DNA of 64,000 nucleotides from Lineus longissimus (GCF_910592395.1 NC_088309.1:22769923-22833922), one strand, 5' to 3'. Positions 5,221 to 34,500 are shown, counted from the first letter of the stretch. A program made the numbers and translations. The notes: a model not told the origin generated them from the sequence alone.

Positions 5221-8200
5221 CTGTAAAGACAACACATGTGAAGATTAGAGCAGAAATCCCAGCAATAAACGATTTAAAAGAAACCTTGACCATCAAAGAG
5301 GCACATGAGGCAATACAAGTGGGGGTGTTCTACTTAACACCTTCAGCGCCGAACCACGTAGATCTACGTGGCCCAAATCCCCCTCCCCTTTGAGCTAGTT
5401 ATCGGAATCTCATGGACATCATGAAAGAACTACGCCATCGCCATCTTCAGGGCAAGGTAGGAACTGAAAAGACACAGTTCCTACCTTGCCCTGAAGATGG
5501 CAATGGCGTAGTTCTTTCATGGAGTCATTTAAAGTTCTTAACTACGCCATCGCCATCTTTAGGGCACGGTGAGAACTGAAAAGACCGTTTGATCTCTTCA
5601 GTTCCTACCTTACCCTGAAGATGGCGATGGCGTATTTTCTTTCATGAAGTCCATGAGACTCCGATAACCAGCTCAAAGAGGGGGGGTTTGGGCCACGTAG
5701 ATATACGTGGTTTGGCGCTGAAGGTGTTAAACAGGTGCTGCGGCGAGAAATCAAGAATCGACATTTCAACCATCAAATCAACCGAAACAAAATAGGCTGG
5801 CACTGCACCATGTGAGATCAAAGGCAAGAGCCCATTATCAAGGACTGCTCATCCTCAGCAACACAAAAGACTTGTTAGGTTCTGCAAAACAGCCCTCCAA
5901 TGAACCATCACTGAGGAGGAAACAGGATCAAAGAGGTACCATGATTCTGCCTACCTGAGGTGGACAAAGACGATTCCATTGATGACATTGAGAGTCTCAA
6001 GAACGTTGACTAGAGATGGGGTCTGAATCTGGAGTGGGGGCAGACCGACTGCTTTCTCGCCTTTATAAATCTCATTCATTTTCTTTTGCAGCACCACAGC
6101 TTGTTTCGTTAAATGCTTGAGACATTCACAACTTTCCTTGGTCCTTTCATGATCATCCCCAAGCTGTAAGAAAGAAAGCGGCTTTATATCAAATATGTTG
6201 TGAGGAAAAGAATTGACAAATGCAGATTTGTGAATCTCTTTGTCATAGCAAGGGCTGGTTCAAGACTAGGTGTTGCCTGGCCTAGCCTAGGACAGAACAA
6301 GACCACTTTTCAAGGCAGGTGGTGCTTTGGGCAAGAGATTCCTGATCCTTACTCAACAGGCTTGCAAGCATTGCAGCCCACCCCCAGCTGGAGTAATGAG
6401 CATACATCACACCTGTTCGAATTTACAAGAAGAACAATCAAAAGATTTGTGTGGCGATGATTGTATCATGCCTTTGTGTGGGTGATGACACATGGTCATA
6501 TGCTATTGTGAAAATTACACTCATTTTGAGATCGAGAAAACTTGGATGCTGCCCTGCAGTGGAGTAGAAGCGAACACTCACCAAATCTTTGTACACATGG
6601 TATGCCTCTTTCTCGTTACTGAGAGCAGTCCTGAAGTCACCACGACATGACTGAACACGCGCGACGAGATGATGACCCATTGCAACTTTCAAACTGTTGG
6701 CGCCAAAGAACCTGAAGAGTGAAAAAAGCTGTTGTAGCAACATATATGCCCAATGATTGAAATTGAAAAAGATTTCAAGAGTCATTTCAGAGCTGTGTAT
6801 AACAGTTATTAGCCCAACTATTTCGCTGTAGTTGGTGTAATACACTGGAAAGAAAAGTCACCTCAGTAAAACTGATCTAACCTCAACAGCAGAGTTAGTT
6901 ACAAGGCATGTTGTCAACATGGGTAGCCAGCTGATTGTGGTCTAGGATAAACACACCAAGAACTAGGCCACCCTGCTACTTACAATGTATTCAGTTGTAA
7001 CGCCTTCTCCAAGAACTTGAGTGACACATCGTACGCTCCAACTGCATGAAGGATCAGCCCGATGTTGCTCTGAAATGCATATGGAGAGATTGGTCGAGGG
7101 AAGAAGGGTGGAAAAATTTCATAAAGACATCTCAAACACAGCTGCAACATTCTTCTATAGCGGACTGCAGCTCAACTTACACAACTATCTGAAGATGATT
7201 ATAATCCACACAGAAATATCGAAACTTGAATCTGCCGTCCGCGTTTCATCATCACCTCAGTAAGACTAATCAAACCTCCACTACTTGTGTCAGATTTATG
7301 AGGCAAGTTGTCATCATTGGTGTTCAGACGAATGTATAAAGATTGGAGAGGAGATATCAGCTTTACTGCTCCGGTACTCACATCAATAAGAGCCACCTCC
7401 GGGTGGTTTTCTCCACTGCACAAGAGAGCCAGGTAGCGAGCTCTGTAGAGTAACCTGAGGGCGCTGCTGATCTGGGTGCTGGCAAAACAGTACAGGGCAA
7501 GGTGAGCCTGAAGAAAAGATTAAACAGATAAACATTCTGCTAAAAGATACGTCTCTCATATACATTGATCTAATATTTATGGCCCGCTTGGGAAACGTGA
7601 CTCTGGGCATAATCAATATGCATGCTTCAAGCCTTTAAAGCCTTAAAACCAAAGATGACACTGTTTATCAAACTTACGTATTCTGTGATGGTGCTAGGAT
7701 GATCAATGCCAAGGACTCGTTCACTGATCAAGACTGCTCTCTGCTGGTACGCAAGGGCCTAAAGGAGAAAATATCATGGTATGTACTACTGGATCAGAAT
7801 TGAATAATGTGTACAAACTGACTGAAATTCCAACACTTCAAAAGCAATACTGATATGTGCACACCGTTCACAACATGTACATGAAATTTCAAGAACCAGG
7901 TTCTCTAGGTAGGATAGAGTCCTTGAGAACGTGAAGGGAGTGTAGTCTTTGATACAAACGAAGCATTAACCTTCACTCTCAACTCACCTCTTGATGCTCT
8001 CCCATAATGTAGTTCAGTCTGGCAAGGAGTTTATTACAGGCAGCTATTTCTGGATGGATCGGTCCGTAGACGTTGTTGAGCAAATTGAGTGCTTCACTGA
8101 TTAACTCATGGCCATCTCGCAAGAAACCTTGCTGAATCTTGGTCTGTCCACTCGTAAAGAAATGGTAGGCATCAGATGCCTGCAAATAGAGATGGAAAGA

Positions 8201-11200
8201 AGTTTTTTATTTATCATCTGATGCAAGTAATCTAGACATGACACTGTTGATGGTAGTTTATCGCCAAAGATAATTCACACGTTCCTGTATTTTTATTCAT
8301 ATACATCGAAGTAGATAGTTATTTCTTTTCCATTTCTTCCAGGTTACCTCAGTAAGACTAATCAAGCCTTCACGATAGAGTCAGGAAAAGAGCAAGTGGT
8401 CATCATTGGTAACCTTGTGAAAAAGTGCTATAACCCAATGGGTGATATGAATAGCATATATAGTACTTAAAACTTCATGTACATTTACACCATGCCTTTC
8501 ACTACACAACTGAAGAAGAAGCATTTCGTAATCATCATATCACCCAATGTTTTATTGCCAGTGTCAGGAGAAGCATTCCAGTTTGTAATATTACCTTTGG
8601 ATGTACGTGTTTGACAATCGGGAACATGTTCACGATATCATCTTCGGAGAATGCAGGTTTGTTCTTGCTGTCAAGGTTGTAATCCCGGAATAAGATTTGT
8701 AAGCCCATTTTCTGGCAGAATGAGCGCAGCAGACATGCTTTTTGGATGTTGTACTTCTCAACGAGTGTGTCAACCGAGTCACTAGGAAAAGAATGACTTA
8801 TAAACTGAATAGGCAAGACAAATGAAAAAGATTCATCTTAAATATTTATGACGATTGATTTCATAATTGGGTCTCCTCAGTAAGACTAATCAAACCTCCA
8901 CGACATGAGTCAGATTTATGAGGCAAGTTGTCATCATTGGCAACCCAATTCTGAGTCAAGAAATGACAAGATTTAAAAGAAAAGTTTGAAAATCTCCCCT
9001 TACCATTCCAAGTTGTACAGGAAAAATTTGGAAGTTTCTTCTGAGATTTTCTTCCATAATGTCTTGGGTGTTTCAGAGGCCCATTCAGTATTATCAGGAC
9101 TAGTCAACCAGCGCCATTTATGGTTCTTCTTCTTGTTCTTCTTTTTAGATCGAATCTGATACAGAAAACACACGGTTAGTCAGCGAGGCATAACAAGAGA
9201 CAGCACAAATTACAGCCAGACTACGTAGCACAAGAGCAGCCATACAGAGAGTTCGCCTGTACAATTCACAGCTCTACTGGTAGCCATTTGAGTGTTTGAT
9301 AACAACACAGCTGCAGCAAGCAAACATGTGTTGAGACAAACGTCTATAATGCTATTTGCCTGCAGCTGCTGCCAGAAGTGTAAATTCTAATGAAAAGTCT
9401 CACGGTCACCACAATCAAATGAACTTTTTGAAAGATCTGAGCAAATTTGAAAGATCACTGCCATACTTACTTCTTCAGGACTGGCTTGTACATGAAGTGA
9501 CGGACAAGAGCCTAGGAAGCAGTTGAGGAAGTGGCTAACAGCATTGGCAAGACTTATCATCTCAACGCCTTGCATGTACGTGTTGAAAATGTGTTTAGCT
9601 GTCCGTGTCACAAGTTCACTCACGGCTATACTCTGAAAGAAAATATACCTTGATAGTAAAACCTTCACGTCCGAGTCAGATACAGAGCAAGTTGTCATCA
9701 TTGGTAACCATAACCCTCTCAATAGAAATCTATTCTTAACAAGCAACATATACAAATGGAAGACTTACATGCAGGTAAACCAGCTGCGTGTGTTCCTCCA
9801 GCAGCGTTGTAAACTTTCCAAGGTATCTGAGGTTGATGCCCCGCTGATGTAAAGCTTCTGTGAGTGTGACGCCATCAATGGGGGCAACCTGATGCTCCAA
9901 ACATTCCTTCACTAGTTGGGGAATTTGACTCAGAAGCAGGAATTCCGCAGCATCCTTTGTAAGCTGTTTATCTTTTTCAATCTGAAGGGAAAAATGTGTT
10001 ACTTTAAATCTGATTTTAGATTGAATTTCCGGGTTAAGTGGGGCAAATTACTAGGCCAGAGGCCACAAGTTGCATAATAAAGGAATCGCCCAACCCAAAG
10101 GTCACATTCACCCAACACCAGTTCTAGTAGGACACGTTTTGGTACTTCTTACCAGCCCTTACTGATGTTATCAGAATGATGCCCTTACAACACACATACA
10201 ATCCGTCTCAGAAAACTGTCTAATAGATGGATTATCTTCTCACTTATCTACTCATCAACTTACATCTTGACCAGCATGTTTGACATGGGGTTGGAATACA
10301 TCTGGGTTGAATGTCAAGTCAAATGCACTCTCTGTCAATGATCCCACAGCTTTAGCAGCCGCCCGTACAATCTCCTTACTACTATCTTCAACTGAAAAGA
10401 GAAAAAGAAACTACATTCACAAACACACAAAACACTTCCTTTGCATTGATCAATTGAAGGAGTCCAACTGCAATGCCAGCTTGGAAGAATTGTTCTTCCT
10501 GTGTGTTCACCTCAAGTCAATCAACTATACTGTCACACTTACAAGACTGACTATCGGCACCAATTATCTCTTCGACCAATTTCTTGGCTTCCTCGACTTC
10601 AACACTTTCATCCTCGCCCTCTTTGACAGCTTCTGGGCTCTGAAATCAGAAATACTCTGACAGTGAACAACAAAGGTATATTTCAGTTCAACTTCCTCTT
10701 AAGACCAGATACTGATGGGAAACTGTAGCAAGTTCTACAATCGAACCCCAGTCATCGGGTGAAAACCCTTCTGGTGTTAGCGAATACATGCATTAATGTA
10801 GCACAAATTCTACACCCAGTGACTTGCTGATGGAGACAATGGGCTCTAGTTCGTGCAAAAATGCAATTCTACATGTTTATAATGTAAATGAAAGTAACTG
10901 TAGCAAGTTCTACTATCAAACCCCAGTCATTGGACAATACAGTCCTTCTGGTGTTAGCGAATACTTGCATCAATGTAGCACAAATTCTACACCCAGTGTC
11001 TTATAGATGGAGACAATGGGCTCTAGTTCGTGCAAAAATACAATTTTACATGTTTCTCCATAAAACAAGTGAAAATGAAGCAACTGTAGCAAGTTCTACT
11101 ATCAAACCCCAGTCATTGGACAATACAGCCCTTCTGGTGTTAGCGAATACTTGCATTAATGTAGCACAAATTCTACACCCAGTGTCTTATAGATTGAGAC

Positions 11201-14200
11201 AATGGGCTCTAGTTCGTGCAGAAAATTCTATTTTACATGCTCATCAATAAAACAAGTGAAATTAAGGAATCATAGCAAGTTTTACTATCAAAGCTCAGTC
11301 ATTGGACAAAACTGCCCTTCTGATGATAGCGAATACTTGCTTTAATGTAGCAAGAACCTGTACCTAAACCAGTGTCAAGAACCTGTACCTCAGAAATGTC
11401 ACAAGTTCTACTTTGAAACCCCAGTCATTGTGGGAAGAAACCCTTACTGGTGTCAGTGAGGACTTGTTTTATTGTAGCACAAAATCCACACCCATTGCCT
11501 TGTAAAATAGACAGTGGGCTTGGTACATTGCGCAAAATATTTATTACATCCGGTAATGATAGAAAGCTTTTTGTATCGTCATCAACATCAGATAACTCAG
11601 GCAACAATGTCGCCTCCGGTGCAAGGAAAAACATTTCCAGTAGTTGTTTCTGTACAAACATGTTTGATAGCTCTGGGATGGGGTGTTCTACAGGTACCTA
11701 AAAAATGTCACAAGTTCTATTATCAGACCCCAGTCATTGTGGGAAGATACCCTTCTGGTGTCAGTGAGGACTTGTTTCGATGTAGCACAAAATCCACACC
11801 CACTGCCTTGTTAAACAGACAGTGGGCTTGGTACATTGCGCAAATGAATGATATGTCTCGTTAAAAAAGATTGGAAAAAACCCTGGAATCCTGTATCGTC
11901 AAAAACCGTCAACTCACATTTTCCTTATCTTCAATTTCCTTTTTCTTGTCAGCTTCCTTCTTCAGTCTCATCTGTTGGAACTGCCAGGCTGCATTCTTGA
12001 TGAAGGCCATGTACCTGGTCCTGAAGTAAAGAAACATAATATCTCAGTAATTGGACAAGCTTTAAAAATATTTACGTGAAACTAGATCAGCTATAAGCCG
12101 GCAAACTTACAACATCAGCGACTGAACAACAGCCGTTATGTCCTTGAGCTCATTATCCTGTAGATAATCTCTCCAAACATCACCCCTGTTCCTCTCCCCC
12201 ACACTCTTCAAGGCATAACATCCACTTCATCTGAGTAGACACTGGAACAATCAACCCATCATTTCGTCCAATACTATTTGGAAATGCATCACCTTTGTTA
12301 CACTTTTTCGACTAACTAAACAGATAGGCCTTTGGTGAAATAAAGTCAAGCAGACATGGGTTTACATGTACGTACTCCACAAATGCCTCAATCAGTTCCT
12401 GTCTGAGGGAGACCAATCGGTGCCTGTGAGCCACTGGGAAGCCTTCCTTCATAACAGCTTTGCTCAGCTCTTCTCCCTCCACTGGAACAACGGATACAGA
12501 AGAGAGACATTAGAGATTGCAAGATCTGAGTGACTGACACAGAAGAGGACATTTATTACAAAACTTAACAATCCAAGAACTGCAGCAAGTTCTACTCTAG
12601 TCACTGGGTGGAAAGCCATACGTAATAAAGCCCTAATTCTACACCCAATGTCGTGTTGATGACAACAATGGGCTGCAGTTGTGCAGAAAATGTTATTTCA
12701 CATGTTTTTCTGAGGAGTTATGTAGCAAGTTCTACTATCAAACTCCAGTCATTGGACAATACAGCCCTTCTGGTGTTAGCGAATACTTGCATCAATGTAG
12801 CACAAATTCTACACCCAGTGTCTTATAGATGGAGACAATGGGCTCTAGTTCGTGCGGAAGTGTAATTCTACATGTTTATAATGTAAATGAAAGTAACTGT
12901 AGCAAGTCCTACAGTCAAACCCCAGTCATTGGACAATACAGCCCTTCTGGTGTTAGCGAATACTTGCATTAATATAGCACAAATTGTACACCAAGTGTCT
13001 TGTGGATGGAGACAATAGGCAGTAGTTTGTGCAGAAAATAGAAATCTATCTATTCTCTCTTTCAAGATAACCAACCACTCATTAAAAGACTGAAATGATA
13101 CTGTTTTACTTACTTGGTAAGAAATTGACATCCGGAGGAAACGTCCGTAGCAGATCAAGGACATAGTGTCTGTTGTCATTACCAACGATACCCTTGCACT
13201 CTACCGAGGACAGCAACTCAACTTCTTCACCCTTCTCATTCAGAACTTTGTGTGGCCTGATTTTGAGATGGGCAGCAGTTTTCTTTAACTGGAAGAAATC
13301 ATAAGGAGTAAAGATTAGATTCAAAAGGATGATACATCAAAAGCGACAGTCGTATGATAAAATCAGTTAAGACATCTGCTCAATCAAACTTACCAATTCT
13401 GCATACTTTTCACTTGTCACTACAGTTTTCCCGAAGTCAATTGATCCATACACAACAGACTGCTCTTGCTCACGCTCCAGAATACCTGAAAATGAGGGAC
13501 AGTTCAGAAAGACATGATAGTAGTCAGCGTTTTACAAACCATCCAAAACGTCTGCATTATCAAAAAAACTTTACACTGTTGAAAGGTATCCAGTCTAGTG
13601 AACGGACAGCCAAGGTATTGAACAAGTTATCCCTCACATAATCTGACATTGGACAAAACTATAACATAGACTGTGTAACAAGACCAGAAAGTTTACCTGG
13701 TATAATGGACTGGGCAGTCACTCGATAACCCCTGTAGTCCACCACAACAGTTCCAAGTGTGAAAAGACCTTCAGCATCAACACTTGCATAAGCTTTCACA
13801 CCTTGCAGATCAGTACCCTACATGAAATCAAGACGGAGAACATTTTGTAAGAAGTGGGAATAAAACTCAGACTAAGCTTTCAGTTGAGTGATAGGACTGG
13901 ATTCGAAACGATGTTGGCGCCTCAGAATTTACCTAAGTTGTCTTCCTTCAGAGCACTGCTTTAAAAGATGGAGGTAGATTGAAACACCACTGCTTTTCAT
14001 TTCAGTAGTAACAATGAGCGTTTAAAACAACCCAGAAACTTAATCAGTGGATTTAGGCCTCATATATGGCTAAAGAAGTACAATGACTTGGGTGTCAGAA
14101 GATGCAAATACACAATACATGAATCAATAGGAATGTACATTAGTCGACTTACAGGGGCAGCATAAGCAGCACTGTCGCCACCAAAGTCCTTGTAGTGATC

Positions 14201-21713: not shown

Positions 21714-22776
21714 GTAAGTAGTTATTTACCCTTAACCCTTTAAGTGCCTCATGTCTTTGAGCCTTCACTTGGAAGAGATCAAAATTACACTTGACTTGCC
21801 TCATAGGGCATGTTAGGCTAATTGATTTGTGTTTCGCCCTCACCAACATCCCTTGTGCAGTGTTTGATTGATTATGTTTTGAAACTCTTCTGCTATAAGG
21901 CCAATTCAAGAGCTCTCATAATATTGATCAGTGTTTTCCAAAATGTGTGGTGTGCTTAGCTGATCAACTGGAGGTATATGTTTCGGATGTTCTGGCAGTT
22001 TTGAATACTATCACTATTAGGCCTTACATGTATTGTATCATGATGCTGCCTGATCACAGCAATCGTTGAATTGTTATTTCGATATGTCGAATAGGTGGTT
22101 ATACATTTATGATTGCTATGAAAGTATACAAATCTGTGACCTTATAACATAGAGCATGGTTCAGCAGTAATGGCAGATATGGATGTTCAAAGCTTTATTG
22201 ACCCATACACTACATGTCAAGCAATTGTGTTGCATCATGTCACAACTGACCTCTGTACTGTGGCATACTTTCTGCCTGACTTGAGACTTGATACATGACT
22301 GTATACATGTCATCCTTTCCACTAATACACTCACAAGACTGTCCAGGAAATAAACAGAGAATTGTTCTGAAGGGAAAAAAGACGAATATGAAAGGACAAA
22401 TTTTCCGGGAGATGATTAGTCCTCAGGATAAATGGTCTCACAGTTAATAGTCCCAGGGGGATAGGGCAAATTATTCTCTGGCGTTTTTAAGCACAACATT
22501 AAAGTCGCTAATGGTACAAATTTACTGTTTTGTTTCCATGTACATGTACTGTCGTTTGTAGGTTCCCATCCACCTAATTGAACTGAACCACTCCATTCTT
22601 GGTCAGCTGAGCGTCATGATTCTTAGGCCTCTTGTTGCTATACACTGTAGTTTGTTTCAGAGTACTGAATGGGGATGCTGCAACAGCCATTGGACTTAGG
22701 TCGTATATAATGACTTCAACTTGCATTCACCTTAAGTTCGTAATCATCTCATAAACGATATCATTTGTCTTTGCAG

Positions 22777-23345
22777 TGGCTGAAGCTGGCGCTGGGTTCG
22801 ATTCAAAGGGCTTTGGCCTGAAAGCTCAAAAGAAGTTACTTAGCAAGATGTCGACCAGAAAGATTCTGAAAGCTTTCATTGATGACACAACAAGTAGGGT
22901 CTTGGACAATCTGTATCGCATCGCAAAGGACTACAAAGGGAAAAAAGAAGCTGAAAAAATCATGAAAAACATCATTAAAATTGTTGTCAAAATCGGAATA
23001 CTCTATCGCAATGACCAGTTTGATACGCATGAGCTAACCATCGCTGAACAATTCAAACGAAAGTTTCGTTCCTTGGTGCTGACGATCATTAGTTTCCATG
23101 AAGTAGATTTCACTTTTGACAGAAATTATCTCTCCGGACTTATCAACGAGTGCAGCGAGATGTTGCACAAATTGATTGCACGCCATTTGACGGCAAAGTC
23201 ACAGGGACGTGTGGATAATGTGTTCTCATTTTTCTCGGAGGCAAATTTCTTAGAGGTAATGTTCTCACCTGATGGCAAATACAAAGACACACTGAAAGTT
23301 ATCGTCAAAGATCTGGAAAAAATGATGGATGATGGCATCTTATGA
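22777..23345 (+). CDS. TNFAIP8: TNFAIP8-like (TIPE family) main coding exon, with stop at 23343-23345.
   Basis: The 189-aa frame carries the TIPE-family signatures ...KKLLSKMSTRKILKAFIDDTTSRVLDNLYRIAKDYKGKKEAEKIMKNIIKIVVKIGILYRNDQFDTHELTIAEQFKRKFRSLVLTIISFHEVDFTFDRNYLSGLINECSEMLHKLIARHLTAKSQGRVDNVFSFF...KVIVKDLEKMMDDGIL. An acceptor ttgtctttgcag lies at 22771-22776. There is no in-frame ATG at the exon start. Confidence 0.85.
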
Positions 23346-31500: not shown

Positions 31501-34500
31501 TACCTTGTGGAAATCATCAAAAGGAACACTTGCAACTGATCCTCTAACACGAGATGCTATGGCTTTGCAGGAATCACCAATAAAATCAGGTACGGAGAAT
31601 AATTTAGGCCCTACGTTTGCATCAGTTTTGTCTGCAACTTCCAAATGCCTAAAATTGATGCAAAGGTTAAAAATGTTTATAAGTGACTAACAAGAGAACT
31701 TGTATTCTGAATGCCAATTGGAAGAGTACGGTACTCTAAACTCTTTACATGAAAACAACCAATCAGTTGTTTGGCCATACATGTACATGTTGGAAAATTA
31801 ACCATCGGCACATACAACACATCACAATTTGGAAAGGGCACAAACTTATCAGCTCTTCAACCCAACACTTGGGAATGCACTTTCAGTAAAAAATAATCAA
31901 AAGGCGCCCGGCTGTAAATTATTTTGTTTACCCAACTACAAATTTAACAATTGTCTGTACCTACCAGTTATATGACAACTGCAGTGACAGCCTTGCGTGA
32001 TCAGCTGTCTCAACCACAATGATATCAGTGCAGAAGTCAGGGCCTAGCAGCAGGCACAGGGACTTGATCTGGTTAGGCTTCTTGGGCTTTCCACCAGACA
32101 GACTCAGCTGAGTAAATTGCTCGTCAGGACCTAGCATCACAAGTTCTGGGCCAAACACAACTCTGAAAGAGAGCCAGATTTATACTTAATATCACTATGT
32201 AATGACTATGTCTATGCATTTGCCACATCTTTTTTCAGTATTGCATGATACAGGCAAACTACCAAAAGCATTCATTGTACAACCTGCAGACAAAAAAAGC
32301 GACAGGAGAAAACTGCCTTTATTCTGCATTCTTCTCATTTAAATTAGGTCAAAAGTTTCTATCCATGGTAGAAATTAGAACTAAAGAATTGATTCTTCTG
32401 AAATTAGTGGACTGCTGCACCAACAACATAAATCCCACGAAATTTGAACTGGACTCTAATGACTAACCTGGCTTTTTTGTCAGTATAATCATAAATCTGA
32501 ACAGCGGCGTTATGGGGCACTCGGAACGTGACGACTTTCGTCTTGTCGCGGGCCTTGCCAGGGGGACCTGAGGCAGACCTATCACTCCTGTCCGCCAAAG
32601 GGTCTTTGCCCTGGGCAAGGAGGGCATCGACTGCTGGAGGCAGATCCTTGACCCACAATTCCTCATCTTGGTTGAGCATGTATGTTTCACCGGTGACAGC
32701 CCTGACCTGCATGACAATTTCGACATATTTAAGTGTAAGGAAGACAATGTTGATATCTAACCTTTCTGCACAGTTTACTGGAGGTCATTTTATAAGTAAT
32801 TTCCAGGAAACAAAGAGATGGATTTAACTTTTCGCATTCGTGAATTCACATTGACAGTATAAAGTGCATCAAAAGTATACCCAGTGTGATACACAGCTCT
32901 TGACACAATAAAGCACAAGTGCTGCTTTCATTTGAGCCGTTAACTGACTGCTGATGCCTACCTTACCAGTCTTTACATCCCTGACATATATACCCTCATT
33001 CTTATCCAAAGGCATAGCCTGGCGTCTGGTTACCACTTCAACTTCAACTGGAGGTACATATTCAGCCGGTCCACGAATCATCCACCTATCTCCTGGCTTG
33101 CGCTCTTTGTCAATGGCAACATCCTTGAAGCATTCAGTCGCACGAAGGATGAGTCCTTCATCCTCGCCAAGAATGTAAACATTCTGGATTCCACGCTCTA
33201 GTTTCTCTCCAGGCATAAGGAAAAAACTCTTCTCGCCTTTAACAAGCTTTTTCTGTCCGAGCTGTGGTTTGCCTGTGGCATCGACAGGATCCATGATAAC
33301 ACAGTACTGCCTGTTGTTAAGTGTAGTAATGTCAACGACTCCTACAACTTCCTCATAGACGGCCGGAATATGTGTTTCTGTGTCTGTCATTTTGATCAAC
33401 CACTCCTCACCGTTCTTTCGCACCTTTCCGAAGTCATCCTTGAATGTCCTGATAGAACGCATATGGAGTGCTTTCTGTAACAGAAGATGTGAAAGTATGG
33501 CTAAGTTAATGATAGAACACTTATGAATGCAAAACAACCAAGGGATTATTCTGAGTACAAAACTTCTCTGTCAGGACATGCATTCATGTTCCTGTTCGAC
33601 GACTGACAAATTTCTCATTGACAAACTTGACACATACCTTTTCTGTCAGAACGTAAGCGTTGACGATATCAACAACCTCCTCATAAGCACCAGGAAGGTA
33701 GGCGCCAGTCTTCTTCACAAGCCATTCCTCTCCTGTCACGCGGTTGGTGCCCTCACGATCGACACACTCTTTACGAGCGCGCAGCTTGATGGCCTGGTTG
33801 GGCTTGATAATCGTGGCACGGGCTGTTTCTTCCACAACGACTTCCTTCCTCGGGATGTAAGTGCCTGCCAAAGGAAGATGGGAAACAAACTCATAATACT
33901 TTAACTATTGGACAACGCCTCTACAATTTTCAGGATTTTTAAAGCCTCAGCTGAACTACATAATTGACATCGAATCACAGACTCTGCATTGGTTTTGAAA
34001 CATCCGGTATACAGGATGTAAAGATTCATCCGAAAATACCTCCGGTGATTACTTGGTCTTTATATAACATTTGGCATTATTTGGAACAACAACAAGAAGT
34101 GTTGCATACCTGGTCCCTCGAATAGCCACTCATCTCCAGCAACTCGTTTATCTCCACTGGCATCCTCGAAGTCAAGAAGAGCGCGTAGACGAATGGCAGC
34201 ATTAGCGATTACAACTTTCAGTGGAGTAACAGCCTATAAGGAAAGGATTTTGTAACAGGGACGTCCAAGAACAGTACGCTCGTTTTTTAGCTGGGTTGAG
34301 TTTGTAAACCTTTCAAGCCACTTTTGAATTGCCTAAGCAGCTCACACAAAAGCTCAAAACATCCTCTGGTGATACCTCTTTACTACCTTGGACATAGGGC
34401 ACGGGTGTTGAGGTCAAGCTAACGACCAACTTGACTTGAACAACTAAGCCAAGGTATGATACCAACCTGTTTGAGAACCTCCCCAGGGAATAGAGGGAAA

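Follow-up and report, generated by a model that had tools for sequence, protein, structure and literature searches.

A 64-kb stretch of the Lineus longissimus genome (GCF_910592395.1 NC_088309.1:22769923-22833922), called the window here, contains a family of box C/D small nucleolar RNA (snoRNA) elements in the introns of the CLUH gene. Three of the copies (copies 1, 2, and 3) are probably paralogous, intron-encoded box C/D snoRNA genes. They are predicted to guide 2'-O-methylation of large subunit (LSU) rRNA at the A of AAAGA*CUAAUCG (an asterisk follows the nucleotide concerned). This would add a snoRNA family, with CLUH as a new host gene, for a poorly sampled animal lineage, and it predicts a concrete 2'-O-methylation site. 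The genes themselves are of a known kind, ordinary box C/D genes, and the finding leaves the workings of C/D snoRNAs unchanged. All coordinates are window positions, and all copies are read on the minus strand, which is the sense strand of CLUH.

The unit is 70-80 nt long. Repeat finding and MAFFT alignment identified three intact copies and two decayed ones (Table 1). A 19-mer, UUGAUUAGUCUUACUGAGG, is found exactly three times (7273-7255, 8365-8347, and 8893-8875) and a fourth time with three mismatches (6879-6861). By chance 0.04 matches are expected, and four were reached in 0 of 100 shuffles. A covariance model (R1) was trained on the three intact copies and run over the window. It gave exactly five matches, every one on the minus strand inside CLUH, and no further match with an E-value below 1 in the rest of the window. 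Similarity among the copies ends at the stem, and the flanking intron sequence is unrelated. Copy 4 has intact C and D' boxes, and its D box and the 3' part of its D guide are gone (…GGUUUUACUAUCAAGG). Copy 0 has a C box of AUGUUGA, a D' box of CUAA, a D box of CUGA, and a guide, UAGAUCAGUUUUA, with three changes. Judged from sequence, copies 0 and 4 are dead paralogues.

Table 1. Copies of the C/D unit in the CLUH introns of the window, with covariance-model scores and parts.
Feature	Position	Strand	CLUH intron	Score (bits)	C box	D guide	D box	Terminal stem
Copy 1, intact box C/D snoRNA (predicted)	7249..7326	-	7381-7070	95.5	AUGAUGA 7317-7311	UUGAUUAGUCUUA 7273-7261	CUGA 7260-7257	CACC/GGUG, 4 bp
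Copy 2, intact box C/D snoRNA (predicted)	8339..8417	-	8594-8180	91.5	8406-8400	8365-8353	8352-8349	AGGUUACC/GGUAACCU, perfect 8 bp
Copy 3, intact box C/D snoRNA (predicted)	8867..8948	-	9003-8782	106.6	8937-8931	8893-8881	8880-8877	UUGGGUUGCC/GGAGACCCAA, 9/10 pairs
Copy 4, decayed	9644..9711	-	9768-9633	34.7				
Copy 0, decayed	6855..6930	-	6983-6712	47.9				

Copies 1-3 share one order of elements. The C box, AUGAUGA, lies 1 nt from the stem and is followed by a D' guide of 15-17 nt, the D' box CUGA, and a spacer of 8-9 nt. Next come the C' box, as UGGAGG or UGAAGG, a D guide of 14 nt, the D box CUGA, and the 3' stem strand. The features that define the box C/D class, RUGAUGA on the 5' side, CUGA on the 3' side, and a terminal stem, are found in all three (stem lengths in Table 1). 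The D' CUGA is exact in copies 1-4. In an RNAalifold analysis, stem columns 3/80, 5/78, and 7/76 were altered on both sides between copies with pairing kept. As C/D snoRNAs usually do, the copies have a folding energy no better than that of shuffles (z +0.3 to -0.9). When the two strands of the window were scanned strictly (RUGAUGA, CUGA 40-130 nt downstream, and a stem of at least 4 bp), only copies 1 and 2 were returned. Copy 3 was missed solely because an internal G-A mismatch breaks the crude stem test.

The differences among the intact copies also appear to be constrained. Over 62 core positions, copies 1 and 3 show three differences, each of which falls within the 9-nt spacer between D' and C' (P = 0.002). 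The stem strands of these two copies have changed at 5-6 of 10 positions, and pairing is maintained. In copy 2, boxes C, D', and D are unchanged, 13 of the 14 D-guide positions are kept, and 7 of 18 aligned D'-guide columns differ. Copies 1-3 are apparently functional, as far as their boxes and guides can indicate.

One further C-box-like sequence lies directly 3' of copy 1 (7229-7256, minus strand), where the 3' stem strand leads into GUGAUGAUGAA. Combined with the C' and D boxes of copy 1, it matches the archaeal sR30 weakly (28.7 bits, E = 2e-4). No CUGA is present within 130 nt past GUGAUGAUGAA, so this is probably not a second snoRNA.

The target of the D guide was explored in two complete eukaryotic small subunit (SSU)-5.8S-LSU units, identified as such by Rfam (L001 and L078), which have the motif at about LSU 900-920. 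In both, the D guides of copies 1 and 3 can form 15 contiguous pairs (14 Watson-Crick and one G-U) with LSU AAGACUAAUCGAACC, and the D guide of copy 2 can form 12. Pairing begins at the second nucleotide upstream of box D. The antisense element of the class, at least 10 nt that end 1-2 nt from the box, is thus represented here by 15 or 12 bp. With 3000 shuffled guides and at most one G-U allowed, 15 bp was reached once (P about 3e-4) and 12 bp 18 times. An earlier shuffle null with lenient G-U scoring was heavy-tailed and uninformative and was dropped. The D-guide match is the top-scoring CUGA-anchored match in the window. The guide of copy 0 has no match to the LSU site in either unit.

The fifth-nucleotide rule leads to the A of GGGGCGAAAGA*CUAAUCG (AAAGA*CUAAUCG), which is LSU 902 in L001 and 911 in L078. 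Public metagenome contigs, when scanned for exact matches to GAAAGACUAAUCGAACC, gave at least 120 eukaryotic ribosomal DNA (rDNA) contigs, L001 and L078 among them, and to judge by these AAGACUAAUCGAACC is a universally conserved LSU stretch. The predicted A lies 9 nt 3' of a widely conserved 2'-O-methylated G, or Gm (yeast G908, human G1612, and Drosophila G1108). By position, it is the equivalent of the methylated A (Am) at Drosophila 28S-Am1117. Its yeast number, based in part on the Drosophila equivalence, is presumably about A917 and may be off by one. Both Drosophila sites have been mapped, Am1117 by RiboMeth-seq and nanopore sequencing, and were assigned to snoRNA:CD28a-d; Gm1108 is conserved in fly, human, yeast, Arabidopsis, and Xenopus, and Am1117 was found in Drosophila only among six species (Sklias et al., 2024). 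The target had also been considered as the U18 site, or as a site 7 nt from yeast Gm805/Am807. Both were ruled out by the Plasmodium PFS8 guide and by the Drosophila table. Gm805, Am807, and Am817 are located in GACCCGAAAGAUGGUGAAC, about 110 nt upstream, and the true neighbour is Gm908 (Drosophila Gm1108). The sequence-only reading of this region had proposed a complementarity to a conserved LSU stretch and had suggested a methylation target in it. The complementarity is real, longer than was proposed, and ends next to the D box with more than 10 bp. The suggested target coincides with Drosophila 28S-Am1117, which is guided by a near-identical D guide.

The closest known system is snoRNA:CD28a-d of Drosophila, formerly snoRNA:Me28S-G1083a-d, which guides G1108 and A1117 and is hosted in Nop60B (Sklias et al., 2024). 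Its D guide is GAUUGGUCUUA-CUGA and that of the window copies is GAUUAGUCUUA-CUGA, in the same register. Both select the LSU A that is 9 nt 3' of the conserved Gm. With a near-identical D guide in this register, the window snoRNAs are predicted to act on the equivalent of Am1117. The Rfam family RF00528 (snoMe28S-Gm1083) has the consensus …UGAUGAGcAuUAACUUUCGCCCCUAU-CUGA…GCGAGAUUGGUCUUA-CUGA, with the terminal part GAGAUUGGUCUUA-CUGA. The window D guide shares 10 of 11 bases with this consensus, and the single difference is an A/G. Several paralogues are present in the introns of one host gene in both systems, and a short residual similarity can be found past the C box (…AACUU..GCC…). There are also differences. 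The host is Nop60B (dyskerin) in Drosophila and CLUH here, and CD28a-d is an insect snoRNA whereas the window appears to be from a spiralian genome. The D' guide of RF00528 pairs over 13 bp with the conserved G opposite position 5. In the window copies, the D' guides pair with this region over 7-8 bp with 2-3 G-U, and they are off register, with position 5 placed opposite a nucleotide that is 1-3 nt from the G. Common descent with CD28 is plausible, and convergence on the same target is also possible, as far as the guides can indicate.

Other C/D snoRNAs are more distant. The family of snR60, SNORD80 (U80), and Z15 (RF00309) acts in the same area of LSU domain II, at yeast Gm908 and human Gm1612, 9 nt away from the predicted A. 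The window copies have no functional guide for that G, and their score is 13.3 bits against a gathering threshold of 41. The snR60/SNORD80/Z15 families are not known to target the downstream A. Several copies of an intronic snoRNA within a single host are known from U18A-C in RPL4/L1 and from U14 in hsc70. As in those systems, each occupied intron has one snoRNA in sense orientation, and intragenic duplication has spread the paralogues from intron to intron within a single housekeeping gene. The host here, CLUH, is not a ribosomal-protein or nucleolar gene. A literature search with the guide string gave one match only, PFS5 of Plasmodium falciparum, a U31/snR67 homologue that is assigned to another LSU site (PMC2656528, Table 2). 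Just past its C box, PFS5 has a D'-type element, UGAUGAUUAGUCUUGU-CUGA (UUAGUCUUGU-CUGA), that complements the same LSU stretch (AAGACUAAUC) and places the preceding G opposite position 5 (PMC2656528). This likeness is either a coincidence or a guide for which its authors named no target.

The D' guides of the copies have no canonical target in the two reference rDNA units. Among the matches listed (from at least 120 rDNA contigs), five contigs have UUUUAUGAGGUAA, with which the D' guide of copies 1 and 3 can form 12 bp (one G-U). This site lies 72 nt downstream of where the D-target motif starts. The paired positions of this site are widely conserved among the contigs listed (UUUUAUNNGGUAAAGCG), except for two central bases that are variable among eukaryotes. 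These two bases sit in UUUUAUNNGG, and a G followed by A or G would give the 12-bp match. The nucleotide selected would be the A of UUUUA*UNNGGUAAAGCG (a UUUUA*UGAGGUAA-type sequence) in LSU domain II. UUUUAUGAGGUAA may be a second target of copies 1 and 3 if the organism's own rRNA has these bases. Such a target agrees with the identity of the D' guide between these two copies. The D' guide of copy 2 has weak matches, 11 bp with 2-3 G-U to SSU GGAGGGCAAGU and 10 bp to LSU AAAAGGGYAA. A pairing of 10 bp is reached by about 7% of shuffles, and the copy 2 matches are at chance level.

The host gene is CLUH, as identified from its coding sequence. Open segments on the minus strand can be joined into a single continuous reading frame that has 45-75% identity to proteins named clustered mitochondria protein or CLUH and that contains the Pfam CLU central and TPR domains. 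The exon boundaries were reproduced by tblastn with CLUH proteins. CLUH is an mRNA-binding factor for mitochondrial biogenesis and is neither a ribosomal-protein nor a nucleolar gene. A literature search found no paper that links CLUH with snoRNAs or that names it as a snoRNA host. Each occupied intron contains a single copy, always in sense orientation to the host. From the 3' end of copy 3 to the 3' splice site downstream there are about 85 nt, and from that of copy 4 about 11 nt.

Much of what the sequence-only reading had described is borne out. Its coordinates and motifs are all present on the minus strand. The C/D architecture it proposed can be found in copies 1-3, with boxes, sense orientation, and a terminal stem that has compensatory changes. 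The perfect 8-bp stem of copy 2, the identical guide before the D box of copies 1-3, the differing D' guide of copy 2, and one copy about 90 nt from a 3' splice site (copy 3) are also as it had claimed. CLUH as a snoRNA host gene is supported by the sequence criteria in copies 1-3. Of its three to four copies, the three intact ones and the degenerate fourth stand, and a fifth, decayed copy at 6930-6855 had been overlooked. The introns are not consecutive as had been thought, because three introns without a copy (9470-9156, 7987-7759, and 7677-7508) intervene.

Other elements were noted in the CLUH introns. The intron of copy 2 contains a stable hairpin (8427-8558, minus strand) with a basal, perfect 12-bp stem, UGGGUGAUAUGA/UCAUAUCACCCA. 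A fold of 146 nt around it (8420-8565) has a free energy of -40.1 kcal/mol (z = -3.3) that was equalled by 1 of 200 shuffles. The hairpin includes an AUGAUGA, has no D box, and has no match in Rfam. Either a small inverted-repeat element or some other structured RNA would be a possible identity for it. A possible C/D-like element is present at 10170-10256 (minus strand), in the CLUH intron that starts at 10262, with UGAUGA 6 nt past the 5' splice site followed by two CUGA. The guide before its last CUGA (UAAGGGCAUCAUU) can form 12 bp (one G-U) with SSU UGUGAUGCCCUUA. For the guide that precedes the internal CUGA, 11 bp (two G-U) are possible with LSU CCGACUGUUUAAU; such pairings are frequent by chance. 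Its C-to-D' spacing is atypical (40 nt), and its sole terminal stem needs exon bases. A tandem repeat with a period of 186 nt (3.5 copies, 87% matches) lies inside a CLUH intron at 10721-11352 and appears as an internally repeated, spurious open reading frame (ORF) at 10888-11250.

From what is known of other intronic C/D snoRNPs, the way in which copies 1-3 would act can be outlined. Each copy would be freed from the spliced and debranched intron by exonucleolytic trimming. Trimming would be stopped by the snoRNP (Snu13/15.5K, Nop56, Nop58, and fibrillarin) assembled on the kink-turn of boxes C and D, which would form as the terminal stem closes. The element upstream of box D would then pair with the LSU, and the A opposite its fifth nucleotide would be methylated by fibrillarin. 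The family would work like the D-guide half of CD28a-d. In the window copies, the D' guide that would form the other half and serve the G site has decayed, and in copies 1 and 3 it has possibly been retargeted.

Several observations weigh against a role of copies 1-3 as guides for this A. No Rfam family was reached at gathering thresholds in the window, and Rfam in E-value mode gave weak, generic C/D matches only. Copy 1 scored 18.9 bits against RF00528, for which the gathering threshold is 48 (E = 0.16 with an 88-nt query), and RF00528 was not among the Rfam matches of copy 3. Since this score, the D' guides, and the host differ, the copies are likened here to the D-guide half of CD28 and are not filed as members of RF00528. 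The C' box is degenerate and agrees with UGAUGA at 3 or 4 of its 6 positions. The distance from the 3' splice site is about 160-180 nt for copies 1 and 2 (copy 1 about 180), further away than the optimum of about 70-80 nt described for vertebrates. The target stretch is carried exactly by at least 120 eukaryotic rDNA contigs, none of which is from Lineus longissimus. For human, yeast, Xenopus, Arabidopsis, and Dictyostelium, no methylation of the equivalent of Am1117 is reported (Sklias et al., 2024, Table 1). With the covariance model, no conserved copy was found in the CLUH loci of an amphioxus (Branchiostoma), a leech (Helobdella), a sea spider (Nymphon), a liver fluke (Fasciola), or a cockroach. 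An intron-less CLUH contig also gave no copy.

Alternatively, none of the five copies may be active. They would then be inert relics, either repeats derived from a snoRNA or pseudogenes, that arose by past duplication or retroposition in CLUH and do not yield stable snoRNPs, and the functional gene for the site, if any, would be located elsewhere in the genome. Two of the five copies are plainly dead, copies 1 and 2 are distant from their 3' splice sites, and every copy has an eroded D' guide for the G site. Against this, the intact copies keep their boxes and D guide while spacers and stem sequences diverge and the stems still pair, at the significance given above for copies 1 and 3. In addition, the two dead copies display what unconstrained decay looks like within the same gene. 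Relic status of all five is unlikely. A small non-autonomous transposon, similar to a miniature inverted-repeat transposable element (MITE) or a short interspersed element, that resembles C/D snoRNAs by chance would also be short, would recur in several introns, and would carry a terminal inverted repeat. Such an origin is highly improbable. The inverted repeat varies among the copies yet stays complementary, which is the opposite of conserved transposon termini. Every copy is sense to one gene and none is found elsewhere in the 64 kb, so the MITE that the sequence-only reading had offered as an alternative is unsupported within the window. The anchored rRNA complementarity of 15 bp and a guide near-identical to a validated Drosophila snoRNA also argue against a transposon.

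A third possibility accepts the copies as real C/D snoRNAs that pair with the LSU and do not direct methylation. They could serve as a folding chaperone or a placeholder on domain II of the pre-rRNA, or they could have another RNA target. The duplex of 15 bp is long, and the equivalent A is unmethylated in five of the six mapped species. Second antisense elements that match rRNA without deposition of a 2'-O-methylated nucleotide have been noted, and a 'sealing' role for the helix 33/35a region has been speculated (Sklias et al., 2024). The register of the pairing, with its start at position 2 and the A opposite position 5, is nonetheless canonical and is that of the Drosophila guide for which Am1117 was mapped. 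Pairing without methylation is quite unlikely, and the reading of copies 1-3 as methylation guides is preferred.

A weak match to the covariance model was found in the cockroach Diploptera punctata (contig L131, 49875-49952, plus strand; 18.4 bits, E = 0.058), in the CLUH intron equivalent to that of copy 3. Its C and D' boxes are degenerate, its guide is diverged (GGUUUAAUGUGUUUU-CUGA), and its similarity, for a match picked out of 124 kb, exceeds that of shuffles by only 3-5 standard deviations. Either chance or descent from an old copy hosted by CLUH, of which it would be a relic, could account for it.

A longer history for the family can be proposed, tentatively. The Am1117-type site would be an old protostome 2'-O-methylation site, served by a dual-guide snoRNA of the CD28 type in the protostome ancestor. 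The host would have switched between CLUH and Nop60B, the guide for the G site would have been lost here, and the D' guides of copies 1 and 3 may have been re-aimed about 70 nt downstream. This history is possible, although rather doubtful. The finding suggests an earlier origin and a wider distribution for Am1117, the 'Drosophila-only' site. If the site is methylated in Lineus longissimus, the 'species-specific' Am1117 of Drosophila would extend beyond flies, probably as a protostome trait, in the helix 33/35a region of LSU domain II. In addition, the locus offers a compact example of snoRNA turnover, with three constrained and two decayed paralogues, one eroded guide, and possibly one retargeted guide.

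Other genes were noted in the window. An intact ORF of 1138 amino acids at 51985-55401 (minus strand) encodes a retrotransposon of the non-LTR (long terminal repeat) type with endonuclease and reverse-transcriptase domains, and its best relative is 48% identical. An intronless TNFAIP8-like ORF at 22776-23345 (plus strand) has 96% protein and 93% nucleotide identity to Logan transcriptome contigs (SRR8850776 and others). Its next matches are from molluscs, hemichordates, and annelids, at 57-63%, and a spiralian is the probable source of the window. An exon at 32869-33537 (minus strand), recognised by eye, is presumably major-vault-protein-like. The bZIP-containing ORFs at 38597-39921 (plus strand), also recognised by eye, are taken to be XBP1-like.

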